Origin: Reclinomonas americana ATCC 50394
Taxonomy: Eukaryota
DNA length: 44,743 nucleotides
Assembly: GCA_048213135.1 (NCBI GenBank)
Contig: PS015474.1
Coordinates: 1-44,743, forward strand
Direction of reading: 5' to 3'
The notes below the pieces were generated by a model. The model was not told the DNA's origin. It saw only the letters and a program-made list of their open reading frames with translations, and ran no database searches. Shown here piece after piece: positions 11,795 to 30,356 of the stretch; positions within the stretch are counted from its first letter, which is position 1, and the number at the start of each line of letters is the position of its first letter. A program made the translations under genes and the position numbers.

Positions 11795-14700
11795 TTACAA
11801 CAACGAGCATCTGCACTTCCGCGATCCGATCTCGGGAGCATTAACGGCGTCGTGTGGTTGTCGTCGCTCCTCTGGATGTGGTGATCGTGGTGGGTCCAGG
11901 TGATGCAAATCTCCGTCGCGGTCACGTCGGCACTCTGCCAGCGCAGCGATGGCAGCTACCGTCTTCGGATCCTCACCACCAAGCACCGCTCGCCGGCCAT
12001 CCGCACACTCTACCAGCAGTGCCTCTGCCTCGGACCATAGTTGCTGTTTCATGAGCAGAAGGCCGTAGTTGTTCATCGTCAGCAATGTTTCTTCATGCTT
12101 GTCACCCAGCACCTCACGTCTTCCCTCCAAGCACTCCCGATACAAAGCAGTAGCTTCTTCCAGTGATTCTGATGTGTTCTGTTGCTCGAGAGAAAACAGC
12201 AAGATTGTTCATCGAGACGAGTGTGTCCGGATGTCGATCACCCAGTGTTGCTCGCCTCAACTTCAAGCATTCTCGCTCCAGTTGAATTACTTCTGCCTGG
12301 CGACTGCAGTCTTGAATACATCTGGCAATATTGTTCAGGGAAACCAACGTGTAGGAATGCTGAGTTCCGAGAATCAGTCGTCTCATCTCCCAGCATCGTC
12401 GATGATATAATTCAGCATCAGCGTATCGCTTCTGCTCGTAGCAGACTGCGCCCTGACAATGAAGCGACATCAGCAAGTCTGGATGATTCTTACCCAGGGT
12501 CGCACACTGCCGCTCGCAACACTCCACCAGCAGCGCCGAATTGCCAGCGGAGTAAGCTATCCACATCAAGCACCTCAACGAGTCAATCCTATCCAACACA
12601 GTCAACTCGACTGTGCTATCCCTCTCCCACTCCTTGTACAAATACCACACCTCCTGAGACGCTGCAACACATTCATCCCGCCGACGAAGTAACTGAAACA
12701 ACCATCCTCGACACTTCGCAACAACAACTGCGAACCGAAGCTGCACTGGACTCAGTACGGTACGACAATCTCTATGTTTCTCACATTCCAGAACGCGCCG
12801 GACAAGTAACGAGGCTATGGCCTCGTCGAATCCAACAGCAGGCAGTTTTCCTCGCACACACAGCTCAGCAATCCACTCCACCGCCCCACACTGCGCCAGC
12901 AGCCCATTCACACCAGCAGCATCACTCGTCCACATGCCATCGTCCTCACTCAACCGTCGCCAGACTGCGCGAATCACACCAAGCAAGTCACGAGACACTA
13001 GTAGCACACCGTCACTGTCATTCAAAGGATCGATGCCATTCACGACACAAGACACCAGTCGCACAACCAGCCGCTGCATCCGAGACACTGCATTCTCATA
13101 CTGCCCCACAATCCACCCAGCAATCTCATCGTGCACTCGATACTCCACCACCACTCCACTCTCCCGCACCTGCTCACCACACAACACACGAGACACACTG
13201 TCCGTGCTGCCACTGACATCCACTGTCACCAGACTCGACAAGCACAGACCCTTCAGCACATCCTCCAATCCTTCGCCACCACCACCACCCACCAACTCAT
13301 CACGCTGTGCACGCACCCGCTGCTCCTCCTCGTCACTCATCTCGTCAAACTGCAGTCGCTCACCCACCACCTCGGGTGCACGCCATCGCCTCTCCTGCGC
13401 CAGCTCGTGCAATCGCAGTCGACGCACACACTGGCCCAACTCCACCAGTCGACTTGCCGCCTCCTCATCTTCATCACCACCACCCGCAGCCATCGTCATA
13501 TCGGGAATCACTCGCAACACACCCAGAGCCACTCGCGCAAGTGCCACTGTCACTGGCAGGCCGAGTTCCTTGCACGCCGTGATCAGCACCAGCAGACGAC
13601 GTGCAGCTGCTGTCTGCGACATCACATTGCGTTCCAGCAGCTGCGACAGCGCATCGCCACCAATGCCATTCAGCACCTCCTCCAGTCGCGCTCCCACCAG
13701 CTGTGCTGGCGATTGGGACAGCAGCCAGCTGCATGACAAAGAAGAGAAGAGAAGAGTGAATTATCTCATCCTCGACACCAGCCCACTTACAGCACTCACC
13801 CAACGCAAGCACTCACTCGCAGTGCACTCTTCTCCTGCTGTCCACTCTCCAGCGCCTCCACAATCTGTCGTCGCATATCCACTGACACCTTGTGGAGCAG
13901 TCGCTCCTCCACCAGCTGCACAATGTCCTCGTTCTCCACGCTCTCCACTCGCACACACTTCACCTCCGCCACATGCATCATCGAGTCACGAATCTCATCG
14001 GCCACTTGCCCATATCGACTTGTCACCACCACAATCGGTGCCACCATTCCATCTGCACAAAGCCAGACGCATGATGAACATCAAATCAGGATCCAGCATC
14101 CAAGCAAGAATGAGAATTCTCTCAGATGCCAATACACACCCTCATCAGCACATTGAACAACATTCCTCACTTGTTCCGCCGATCCCACATTGTCCAGCAC
14201 CATCACTCCACTCGATGCATGCATCAGCTGTCGCAGGAGACGACGTGCTGGCTCCACCTCGCCACTCGCCAGCAGTGCATCCACCTGACCGGCCATCATG
14301 CGTCCCTCCACTTCGTCCACACGCATCTGCGCTGACACAAAGGCACGCAGACACTCGCCCAGAGCACTCTCCGCCTGCAGTGTGCGGCACGGAGAGAGAG
14401 AGTCAGAATGACAGACACGAAGGAGACGACGCAACATGATAAGAATACATGCATGTTGCCTCAGCACACCTTCACATGCTCCCTCGCATCGCCCACATGA
14501 CCACGCATCTCCACCGACACGGCAGATCCTTTCCATCGACGAGTGGCCAGCAGCTCGGTCACCAGAAGCTCGGCCAGGAACGACTTGCCAGTGCCACCAT
14601 CGCCCGTCAGCACCACCACGATTGGATGGTGTGCTGCACAAGAAATCATCATCCAACAAACAACATGATAAGACACACGATTGCGGACAAGGAAGGGGAA

Positions 14701-16281
14701 TGAGAAGGAACAGTCAACCTTCCACCGCATCCACAATGCGCGTGGCGAGTGAGGCGGCCAGTGCACGCCGACTCGGGAAGCGGAATGTGGTCACTGGATT
14801 GACAGCGCGGGCGATGAGCGGTGTCTTCCGAGGGCTATCAAGTGCTGTGGGGCATGGAGAGTGCGGATGAGCACAGAAATGCACATTCAACGCAGGCCCA
14901 TCGTGGAACACACCTGCAGCTGAGGGAGAAGAGGGAGAGATGCTCATCTTGCTCAGCTGCTGTTGCACGAGCTCCATCTCCGCACGCACTGTCGCCTGCA
15001 TAGCTAACCGCATCTGATGAACCACAAAAAAGGGAGACGCCATAAGTCCTCAGCAGATGACCACCTCTCGCACATCCACTCAACTTGCTCCATGTGCACA
15101 TGCAACAGCGTTTGATCTGCCTGACTCAGTGCACCTGCATTCACACAAAATAAAGACAAAATCAGCTTCCACATTCGATCAAATCATCCACGCACAAGCA
15201 CCAGCCATCTCTCTCCATCACTCACCATCACGAGCCTCATTCAGCTGCACCACCAATTCCTCCTCCACATCCCTGCCAATCTGCAGTCGCCGCACAAGCT
15301 GGTGCAGCTCGCCCTCTCCTCTTCCGTCACCGAGTAGAGGCACAAAGAGTGCCCGAGATCGTGCGGGACTCGCTTGCTCAAATACCTCCCTCATTTGCTC
15401 AATCGCATTGCGCTGTGAACAATGAGGGAGTGAGAGGCACAATCACACAAAGAAGGAGATCACACTTGTCCTCCTTCTCATTCCCACACACTCACCACAT
15501 CGCCAGGTGGAATCAAACGATCCGGCTCGTCTCGCGGGTGCTCTCGATGACCCGCCAGCAGCAAGATCGAACAGCACAGCATCGCATCAAACGAGCTGCA
15601 GTCGTGCAGCTGGCCTCGCTGATGCCACTCGCGCACCAGCTGGAGCTCCTTCTCGTTCAACTGGACACACATGTCCACTCCATCTGGCATAGTACTGCAC
15701 GTTGGGGAATAGGCACAAACAAAGCGAGGATGCTGGTGAGTGAGGAATGCGTGCAACAAGAATGAGGAGGCATTCATCAGGGATGGAATGTGGAGTCGTG
15801 TGTCATGAGACAAAGAAGAGCGCAAGATTGGGGAGCAAGGGATGACCAGCGCTCATCACCATCTGCCACTTGCTTGTGGCAATCTGTTCTCTTCTCTTCT
15901 CTCATTCACATCTCCATCTGCATCTTGCCATCGTGTGCTTTGCCATCCACTCCACACACTCACCGCGCATCACGCTCACTCGGCGCCTTGCACCACTCGG
16001 CGACGTGATTCACACCGGGATACGAATCGAGAAACGCCGGCAGCACTTGCTCGAGTTTGGATTGCAGAGCGCGGGTGCATGGACGAGACAGTGCCATGGC
16101 AAGGCGTATCATGCATTCCTCATCACCAGTATCGTGATGATGACTGCACGAGAGAGGAGAGAGGAGAGGAGAGTGACAGGGAACGAATCACTCACAATGT
16201 GGAAATGATAATGATGATGATGCATTTGAATAACACAATGAAGACACGCAACTCACGCGGCACTCCACTCCCACTCGCCAT
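11795..16281 (-). CDS. NLR-like protein A: helical (possibly HEPN-derived) N-domain, STAND P-loop NTPase, TPR, CaaX; 1-bp frameshift near 12195
   Basis: Walker A VVLTGDGGTGKS (~14604-14581), Walker B GVMVLDNV, sensor motif PIVVVTSR. TPR_10/12-type repeats LGxxHPDTLVSMNNLA and LGDKHEETLLTMNNYG in one long exon 13728-11795. Ends GSRKCRCSLL*. N-terminal exons 16143-15964, 15694-15496, 15412-15225. Confidence 0.8.
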
Positions 16282-29000: not shown

Positions 29001-30356
29001 GGCAGCAAGGTGGTGGAGTATCGAGTGCACGATGAGATTGCTGGGTGGATTGTGGGACGGTGTGGAGATGCCGTGTCACGGGTGCAGCGATTGATTGTGC
29101 GACTAGTGTGTTGTGTGCTGAATGGCATTGATTCACAGAACGACAGCGATGGTGTCCTGCTGGTGTCACGAGACTTGCTCGGTGTGCTGCACGCGCTGTG
29201 GCGACGGTTGGCTGAGGATGACGGCATGTGGGCGATTGATGTTGTTGGTGTGAATGGGCTGCTGGTGCAGTGTGGGGCAGTGCAGTGGATTGCAGGGTTA
29301 TTTGTGGAAAGCAAGCTGCCATCACGTGGATTTGACGAGGAAGTGACCGTGTCACTTGCGCGGCGAGTGACTGCGTGTGAACAGCTTGTAGATTGTGAAA
29401 TTGAAACGAGTCCAGGACGACGACGGTGTGCAATTGCCGTGGCCAAGTCTCAAGCGCGATTGTTCTCCATGCTCCGTCAGTGGGATGAGCGCAAGGAAGC
29501 GTGGCAACAGGCGTGGCGATTGTGTGAGGAGTGGGAGAGGAGTGACAGTGGCGAGATGACTGTGCTCGATAGGATTGACGCATTGCGCTGCCTAATGTTT
29601 CTTGGTTTTACATTGTTCAGCTTGCCACGGCTTTTGCAATGTCATCAGTGGCAGTGTGCGACACTGGGTGAGAGTCATCCGGACTCACTGATGACACTGC
29701 ATGTTATTGCGTTCTGCCAACGTGATCCACTCGAACATGCTGCTGCTCAAGCACTCAATCGACGATGCTGGGAGATGCGACGACTGGTTCTCGGAGCTCA
29801 GCACCCTCACACATTGATGTCCATGAACAATGTTGCCTCTGGTGTGCACGAGTGCAGTCGCCTAGGGGAAAAGATTCAACTATATCGAGGATGCTTGCAG
29901 CTAAAACAAGAAGCACTGGGAATGTGGCATCCGGAGACACTCATAACGATGAATAATCTTGCCTGTTCTCTCGAGCAGCAGAACACACCAGAATCACAGG
30001 CAGAGGCTGCTGAATTGTACCGAGAGTGCGTGGAGGGACGACGTGACGTTCTGGGTGATAGACATGTTGACACGTTACAGGCGATGCTCTGCCGTGGCAT
30101 TCTGCTCGTGGGGCAGCAGCGATGGGCCGAGGCAGACGCACTATTGGCAGAGTGTGTGGATGGAATGCGAGCGGTGCTTGGTGAAGAGCATCCGGATTCG
30201 GTGAAAGCCGTGAATACCCTGGCCGAGTGTCGACGTCTTCGTGTTCTCACCCAACAGCAATTACCATCGCTGTCTGTGCAGCCGCAGGAGCCGGTGCGAC
30301 ACCACGATACCGCCACCGACAACTTGTCGCAGAGGTGCAGATGCTCATTGTTGTGA
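26042..30356 (+). CDS. NLR-like protein B: caspase-family (peptidase C14) domain, STAND P-loop NTPase, TPR, CaaX
   Basis: Caspase exons 26141-26229, 26301-26524, 26588-26703, 26780-26871 and 26936-27130 splice in frame: RVALLIGN...LLRNPPHDV...LLFFSGHG...IVILLMNCCR...SPYVRAL. Walker A GDDGTGKS (27521-27544), Walker B GVLVLDNV, PIVVVTSR. TPRs in exon 28424-30356, ending QRCRCSLL*. Exact start codon uncertain. Confidence 0.88.

Follow-up and report, generated by a model that had tools for sequence, protein, structure and literature searches.

Two inverted NLR-like paralogues with different N-terminal modules on a Reclinomonas americana contig

Modular effector layouts on an NLR-like chassis are already known from bacteria and fungi. 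A locus on contig PS015474.1 of Reclinomonas americana ATCC 50394 (assembly GCA_048213135.1) raises the question of whether a further eukaryote has built such receptors, and whether it exchanges their output modules between gene copies. The DNA examined, here called the window, is a stretch of 44,743 nt that holds gene A on the - strand (16281-11795) and gene B on the + strand (26042-30356), pointing away from each other. A sequence-only reading of this DNA had described them as NLR-like paralogues in which a fixed chassis of STAND NTPase and TPR repeats carries a caspase in B and a helical, HEPN-like domain in A. We consider it likely that A and B, with their differing output modules, go back to an old inverted duplication of an NLR-like gene that is specific to the lineage. 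Particular to the locus is a C14 domain on an intron-rich eukaryotic NLR-like gene, together with a sister copy that has another module at the same intron phases.

A and B are inverted paralogues. With blastn, A 14827-11924 aligns to B 27294-30236 at 78.1% identity over 2,967 columns, the same blocks are found as inverted repeats, and the two proteins are 68.5% identical over 810 amino acids. A second block lies at the 5' ends (A 16330-16243, B 26000-26080; 80.7% identity over 88 nt by blastn). Its core of ~55 nt around the ATG is near-identical in the two genes, and its similarity stops ~10 nt beyond a common GTTGCG donor, that is, into intron 1. The DNA homology picks up again ~17-23 nt inside exon 7 and a third blastn block, 28 nt at the 3' ends (A 11824-11797; 89% identity), encodes the C-terminal CRCSLL. 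These alignments bear out the divergent paralogues, the shared 5' element at 16281/26042 and the common C-terminus of the sequence-only reading. Its claim of homology from the exon at ~14848/27271 onward stands for exon 7 itself, whereas the start of the homology lies inside that exon and not at its acceptor. A tblastn search of the window with both proteins found no further family member.

The gene structures agree with this division into shared and private parts. Each gene was modelled with 11 exons, with GT-AG splice sites throughout that were picked to keep the frames open and were checked by script. Introns 7-10 are identical between A and B in position and phase, as had been proposed. 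Exon 8 (164 nt) and exon 9 (235 nt) have the same length in both genes, and NTPase exons 7-10 share 81-89% nucleotide identity with the same phases. Introns 7 and 8 are themselves 81-83% identical, against a shuffle baseline with a mean of 61% and a maximum of 72%. Upstream of exon 7 each gene has a non-homologous interior of five exons, 716 nt in total, with a phase-2 intron before it and a phase-1 intron after it. The phase-2 intron is intron 1, between the common 29-nt exon 1 and the first module exon, and the frame is kept across it in both genes; the GTTGCG donor of intron 1 is supported by the GTTG-type donors found at the homology-supported intron 7 of both genes. Both genes have a phase-1 intron ahead of their first shared exon (A 14844, B 27271), which agrees with the junction to the STAND-exon chassis first described. 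Because these boundary phases are the same in both genes, one module can replace the other in frame. The modules themselves gave no blastn, blastp or Smith-Waterman signal against each other, the score of their alignment being reached by 155 of 500 shuffles with BLOSUM62 and by 100 of 500 with BLOSUM45. The proposal of unrelated interior exons on a fixed chassis, that is, of non-homologous multi-exon N-terminal modules at compatible intron phases, therefore held, and exon shuffling is a fair reading for these two genes.

Two side observations concern the same exons. The equal 716-nt totals, reached without any common intron position, are possibly a coincidence or the result of a length constraint. 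When intron 1 is read through (16196-16252 on the - strand, 26071-26140 on the + strand), the frames of A and B both continue into a hydrophobic stretch, and A has a further phase-2 donor at 16196/16195 whose use would extend exon 1 to 86 nt; other first exons are possible in A and B.

The identity of the B module can be read from several searches. Pfam Peptidase_C14 (PF00656) matched exon 26303-26524 alone with 30.6 bits (cut-off 21.4, E 3.3e-7). tblastn with this caspase exon retrieved 133 plasmid records at ~30-34% identity (best E 2e-3); among the 40 plasmid rows listed, 34 fall on genes annotated as caspase family or caspase domain proteins, five have no listed feature and one falls on a SUMF1-type enzyme gene. 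Against a caspase profile built from eight of the plasmid-borne bacterial caspase proteins (L001-L008), the spliced B module scored 73.3 bits (E 1.6e-24 for one sequence), a score reached by 0 of 500 shuffles. The alignment covers profile positions 24-225 and module residues 3-208, is colinear over all five exons, and places SGHG on the profile's aGHG and NCCRS on its DaCrd, with the His and Cys loops conserved in B. As it runs unbroken over the four predicted junctions, it also validates the B splice model. The Pfam, NCBIfam and PADLOC searches with single NTPase and module exons also included a weak 'caspase, EACC1-associated' match (18.8 bits, cut-off 140), and the PDB search with the caspase exon returned MALT1 at E 1.1. 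By sequence, the B module is a C14 caspase, as the sequence-only reading had recognised; the domain is complete and has its His-Cys pair, and proteolytic activity is predicted.

The A module is probably coding. Its frame is open over five exons through canonical splice sites, and codon usage favours the predicted frame, with a log-ratio of 0.309 compared with -0.33 and -0.16 in the other two; the shared coding part reaches 0.35 and the introns range from -0.09 to -0.16. No recognised family emerged for it. Pfam searches with each exon at E up to 10 matched nothing, NCBIfam, PADLOC and PDB searches with the exons gave no match, and the search for language-model look-alikes in Atlas with exon 3 also gave nothing (best score 0.84). 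tblastn of exon 3 against plasmids returned 12 records, all with E of at least 2 and none of them a caspase gene. The caspase profile scored 1.6 bits on the A module, off the catalytic region, which was equalled by 5 of 500 shuffles. A helical fold is plausible. The suggested HEPN-like identity was given up, given that Pfam showed no match and the single R.{4,6}H motif (RGEGELH, residue 167) is off-place and has no supporting context. As a lead only, the AGH..HP stretch of the module aligns to the TPR repeats of P0115, one of the TPR proteins discussed below, with 10.9 bits, reached by 1 of 100 shuffles.

Downstream of the modules both genes encode the same P-loop NTPase, with a GTGKS Walker A motif in exon 8 of each. 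On the P-loop exon, Pfam gave nSTAND3, AAA_16, NPHP3_N and NACHT at E 0.0014-0.06, all below cut-off. For a comparison over the whole region we used an NB-ARC-TPR profile. From the 120 TPR matches listed, 22 proteins were picked by their precomputed NB-ARC, NACHT, AAA_16 or nSTAND1 annotation and scanned with Pfam, and the 17 with NB-ARC made up the profile. The whole NTPase region scored 13.6 bits in A and 7.1 bits in B, with 2.0 bits as the best of 200 shuffles, and the segment from Walker B to the sensor scored 6.3 bits in A and 6.6 bits in B, which 0 of 1000 shuffles reached. In this segment VLVLDN aligns to LLvfDN of the profile and VVVTSR to iliTtR. The complete motif order, from the FRFPSRR helix through GTGKS, VLVLDN and VVVTSR to an L..L..E..L helix, is colinear with the profile consensus (FxxR-helix / GxxGxGKS / hhhhDN / hhhTSR / L..L..e..L). 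phmmer searches with the nucleotide-binding and oligomerisation domain (NOD) regions matched none of the 120 listed TPR proteins (best E 0.0073-0.13, in TPR-like stretches). On these sequence comparisons, the NTPase is a plausible candidate for an NB-ARC-like STAND class.

The C-terminal array of TPR_10/TPR_12 repeats is certain in A and B, in line with the sequence-only reading. Pfam E-values are 6e-18 for TPR_10 and 1.8e-16 for TPR_12 in B and lie between 1e-13 and 6e-18 over both genes. AlphaFold2 (AF2), run on exon 11 with a two-sequence alignment, was confident for the TPR part only, and hence Foldseek reports only TPR proteins; its top matches to the TPR model are kinesin light chain TPR domains (E 2e-8). 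A sequence search with the TPR part gave generic TPR_10/12 proteins; those listed are 25-41% identical, differ widely in their N-termini and include no close relative. In the helical arm ahead of the array Pfam matched nothing, and the Atlas language-model look-alikes of the arm are TPR-type clusters, which we take as a lead only. The CRCSLL-coding block (30327-30356 on the + strand, 11795-11824 on the - strand) is conserved at the end of otherwise diverged tails. Its CSLL presumably fits a CaaX prenylation box, with an extra Cys nearby, and membrane anchoring of A and B through this CaaX-like end is predicted.

Divergence between the two genes is uneven. Synonymous divergence (dS) is 0.36-0.55. 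The ratio of non-synonymous to synonymous substitution (dN/dS) rises from 0.23 in the NTPase to 0.40 in the arm and reaches 0.53 in the TPR array with its tail. With values below 1, purifying selection has acted on A and B alike, and least strongly on the part taken to be the sensor, as would be expected of a conserved switch whose sensor evolves faster.

Several results weigh against the favoured reading of an inverted duplication with differing output modules, and they are best considered together with the alternatives they would suit. The splice junctions were predicted from sequence alone, and the caspase exons and the A-module exons could belong to separate upstream genes, with NTPase-TPR genes that begin near exon 7. 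Such an error in the gene models would be in keeping with a DNA homology that begins only inside exon 7 and with splice sites chosen for open frames, but we regard it as improbable. No in-frame ATG precedes the first strand of the caspase, whose frame thus needs an upstream exon; the conserved exon with the ATG can supply it, spliced in frame from a donor that A and B have in common. Both modules end in phase 1 and can be spliced to exon 7, with its phase-1 acceptor, without creating a stop. If the modules were parts of unrelated genes, it would be difficult to account for a common 5' block ahead of two different ones, and the caspase profile alignment is colinear over four predicted junctions. 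Less probable again is that the modules are distantly homologous and A is a diverged pseudo-caspase without the catalytic Cys, with no foreign module swapped in. Both modules comprise exactly 716 nt in five exons, their best local alignment pairs LLLAGH of A with LFFSGH of B, and by eye a GDGRG lies 47 residues past A's His, near the caspase His-Cys loop spacing. However, that alignment is not significant by the shuffle counts given above, none of the four intra-module intron positions coincide, and the caspase profile separates A from B clearly (1.6 bits outside the catalytic region compared with 73.3). Exon 3 of A found no caspase among its 12 plasmid records, Pfam had no match, and the AGH..HP stretch that would carry the His is instead weakly TPR-like. 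A decaying A is the alternative that we take more seriously, even if it is unlikely: only B would work, and the contrast between the genes would reflect degeneration and not an effector swap. Relative to B, A contains an additional base within a T run near 12198, which shifts the frame to a stop at 12114-12116 and truncates A ahead of the last TPR units and CRCSLL. The A module has no family match in any library or collection searched, and the coding support for that module consists of the open frame and codon usage. Yet the frame is open over five exons and its codon usage resembles that of the shared coding part and not that of the introns. Pfam TPR_10 and TPR_12 matched on either side of the frameshift, and dN/dS is below 1 everywhere, including the frame beyond the shift (0.47-0.67), where the CRCSLL codons are conserved within the 89% identical block. 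This conserved downstream frame indicates that the shift is either recent or an assembly error, and the position of the extra base in a T run of a gap-rich draft means that it may be the latter. Without this base A would be intact at ~1151 aa and would end in CRCSLL.

The switch itself is the other point at which evidence runs against the favoured reading. No curated NB-ARC, NACHT or other STAND model reached its cut-off on any single NTPase exon, NCBIfam and PADLOC gave generic P-loop matches only, and the PDB searches gave generic P-loop and designed repeat proteins but no STAND protein (Vps4, kinases, PtuA and TRIP13 are among the generic exon matches). The margin of the Walker B-sensor segment over the best shuffle is small (6.6 compared with 6.2 bits) and the winged-helix segment did not stand out from shuffles (A -0.5, B -0.2 bits, equalled by 120 and 95 of 1000). 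In hhalign, the A and B NTPase aligned to the NB-ARC-TPR alignment over 44 columns around the P-loop only, at 83% probability. The arm is equally isolated: phmmer with its 416 amino acids gave 0 matches among 1,835,955,588 representative proteins, and its mean predicted local distance difference test (pLDDT) score in AF2 is 53.8, mostly below 50 for residues 1-352. The NTPase could accordingly be a P-loop protein outside the STAND class, which would make the NLR analogy superficial. We judge that to be improbable too, given that the curated family and PDB searches were run on single exons of 54-83 amino acids each, whereas motif order and spacing agree with the NB-ARC-TPR profile and two independent segments scored above shuffles. 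STAND proteins likewise show the order N-terminal enzyme, NTPase, helical region and TPR array, and NB-ARC is carried by 17 of the 22 annotation-selected, scanned proteins among the TPR-nearest listed. For the STAND NTPase of the sequence-only reading, the Walker A motif and low, above-shuffle profile scores speak in favour; curated models did not recognise it on single exons, and the profile did not pick out a winged-helix segment.

Under the favoured duplication, both copies follow one layout: a short leader exon comes first, then the output module at the N-terminus, a P-loop NTPase whose motif order is NB-ARC-like, the helical arm and finally a kinesin-light-chain-type TPR array that ends in CRCSLL. 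By analogy with STAND and NLR proteins, the TPR array would keep the protein closed until a ligand is bound, upon which the NTPase would exchange its nucleotide and oligomerise. In B, oligomerisation would bring the fused caspase domains together and activate them by proximity, which would make B a one-chain apoptosome or inflammasome with proteolysis as its output and cell death or defence as the most likely setting. In A the switch would be the same and the output another one. For both proteins we infer the STAND class, oligomerisation and the immune or cell-death role from these analogies. A more far-reaching version is that A and B represent an unsampled eukaryotic NLR-like family that combines a ligand-sensing TPR/NB-ARC-like switch with an active bacterial-type caspase (a single-chain apoptosome), in-frame module exchange and a CaaX-like membrane tether. 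We put this forward tentatively and rate it as possible more than as expected. If true, exchanging cassettes at fixed intron phases would be the way in which this lineage assembles its set of receptors for cell death or immunity.

In the Apaf-1 apoptosome and in NLR inflammasomes, a STAND switch oligomerises and activates a caspase by proximity, and the animal caspase is a separate protein that is recruited through CARD or PYD adaptors. The mechanism proposed for B would resemble these systems in the step from STAND oligomerisation to caspase activation by proximity. The difference is that in B receptor and caspase form one chain, and no death-fold domain turned up here. B adds a data point between direct caspase-STAND fusion, as in bacteria (with protease-NLRs in fungi), and adaptor recruitment, as in animals. 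The fused caspase also makes forced oligomerisation an easy experimental handle, and the locus as a whole is a compact, testable case of effector-module exchange on a receptor chassis.

The closest architectural counterparts of B are bacterial metacaspase/orthocaspase-STAND-repeat proteins, which likewise carry an N-terminal C14 domain, a STAND-type NTPase and C-terminal protein-binding repeats on one chain (PMC3501461, PMC4986451). Metacaspase-STAND fusions are described as common in multicellular bacteria (PMC4986451), and metacaspase-NACHT-WD40 proteins as widely distributed, with two metacaspase-NB-ARC proteins in Chloroflexus (PMC3501461). Identity between the caspase exon of B and the 'caspase family proteins' encoded on bacterial plasmids is 30-34%, and the profile of these proteins matches the complete module. 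B departs from the bacterial fusions in being eukaryotic and interrupted by 10 spliceosomal introns, in having TPR_10/12 instead of WD40 repeats, in an NTPase that curated models do not recognise, and in having a paralogue, A, with a different N-terminal module.

Fungal NB-ARC-TPR NLRs have the same layout of effector, NB-ARC and TPR_10/12 as A and B, and their N-terminal domains are combinatorial among paralogues. The scanned TPR matches include fungal-type examples (P0014 and P0017 with HET; P0115 with patatin; P0112 with SesA), and the TPR part of A and B is 30-41% identical to fungal-type NB-ARC-TPR proteins. CHAT, a caspase-like protease, and S8 proteases are listed among fungal NLR N-termini (PMC9815663). 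In contrast to the fungal NLRs, the protease here is C14 and not CHAT, and the NTPase and arm are without detectable sequence relatives. Candidate NB-ARC-TPR receptors outside animals, plants and fungi are described for Ectocarpus, with a family of 24 genes for which gene birth and death and TPR exon shuffling were proposed (PMC3341825), and for Acanthamoeba, with a single homologue (PMC4053784). A and B resemble these in being such candidates. In Ectocarpus the units proposed to be shuffled are single TPR exons, whereas here a single exon encodes the whole TPR array and it is a five-exon N-terminal module that is exchanged. A literature search, which was not exhaustive, found no description of a C14-STAND fusion for a non-fungal eukaryote.

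Plant paired NLRs arranged head to head are adjacent divergent genes with a short common promoter region, which A and B do not fit. Their start codons are 9,760 nt (9.76 kb) apart, close to the ~10 kb first estimated, and the interval spans five N runs and at least one other candidate open reading frame. Nothing suggests a shared promoter or a sensor-helper relation, and the idea that A and B work as a pair was not upheld. Coordinates of the two genes and their parts are collected in Table 1.

Table 1 Positions of the exons and predicted parts of genes A and B in the window
Feature	Strand	Positions	Details
B exons	+	26042-26070, 26141-26229, 26301-26524, 26588-26703, 26780-26871, 26936-27130, 27271-27402, 27492-27655, 27771-28005, 28096-28345, 28424-30356	1152 aa
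A exons	-	16281-16253, 16143-15964, 15694-15496, 15412-15226, 15134-15085, 15013-14914, 14844-14719, 14633-14470, 14374-14140, 14052-13800, 13728-12114	1045 aa as assembled
B conserved 5' block	+	26000-26080	leader, ATG 26042, 29-nt coding exon 1 26042-26070, GTTGCG donor
A conserved 5' block	-	16243-16330	ATG 16281, 29-nt exon 1 16281-16253, GTTGCG donor
B caspase (C14) module	+	26141-27130	five exons, 716 nt; His in SGHG (exon 3), Cys in NCCRS (exon 4)
A N-terminal module	-	14914-16143	exons 16143-15964, 15694-15496, 15412-15226, 15134-15085, 15013-14914; 716 nt, ~238 aa
B P-loop NTPase	+	27271-28345	exons 27271-27402 (pre-P-loop FRFPSRR helix), 27492-27655 (Walker A GTGKS), 27771-28005 (Walker B VLVLDN), 28096-28345 (VVVTSR, sensor-like)
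A P-loop NTPase	-	13800-14844	exons 14844-14719, 14633-14470, 14374-14140, 14052-13800
B arm	+	28424-29672	first 416 codons of exon 11, helical, no known family
B TPR_10/TPR_12 array	+	29673-30356	range includes divergent tail, C-terminal CRCSLL 30336-30353 and stop
A exon 11 (arm and TPR)	-	11795-13728	stop 12114-12116 as assembled; homologous frame runs to CRCSLL, stop at 11795

Judging from its spliceosomal introns, the locus is eukaryotic. The window belongs to a draft scaffold rich in gaps, with 13 N runs of 20-532 nt each, and CT/GA and CA/TG microsatellites are plentiful in its intergenic DNA. A tRNA scan and an Rfam scan of the whole window found no RNA gene. Between A and B, the open reading frame at 17578-18027 (+) has a weak S-adenosylmethionine (SAM)-methyltransferase motif (Methyltransf_25 at E 0.0025 and Methyltransf_11 at E 0.0052, both below cut-off), and the frame downstream of it at 17895-18389 had no match. 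On the far side of B, the long open reading frames 35480-36103, 37464-38114, 38665-39180 and 40268-40933 (35480-40933 on the - strand) resemble exons of a single large gene, and none of them was matched by Pfam at E up to 0.01. On the far side of A lie two long single-exon ankyrin-repeat paralogues, 1748-3400 (-) and 5226-7058 (-), with Ank_2 at E 5.5e-11 and 1e-9. Leader-like or N-terminal pieces of open reading frames, MASSS..PPAP.PTPSDLLDDLLRKAKA and ...STKHNTLSYHS..., recur at ~1-486 (-), 4443-4770 (+) and ~7100-7247 (-), and together with the ankyrin-repeat paralogues they would be a second locally duplicated family in the window.

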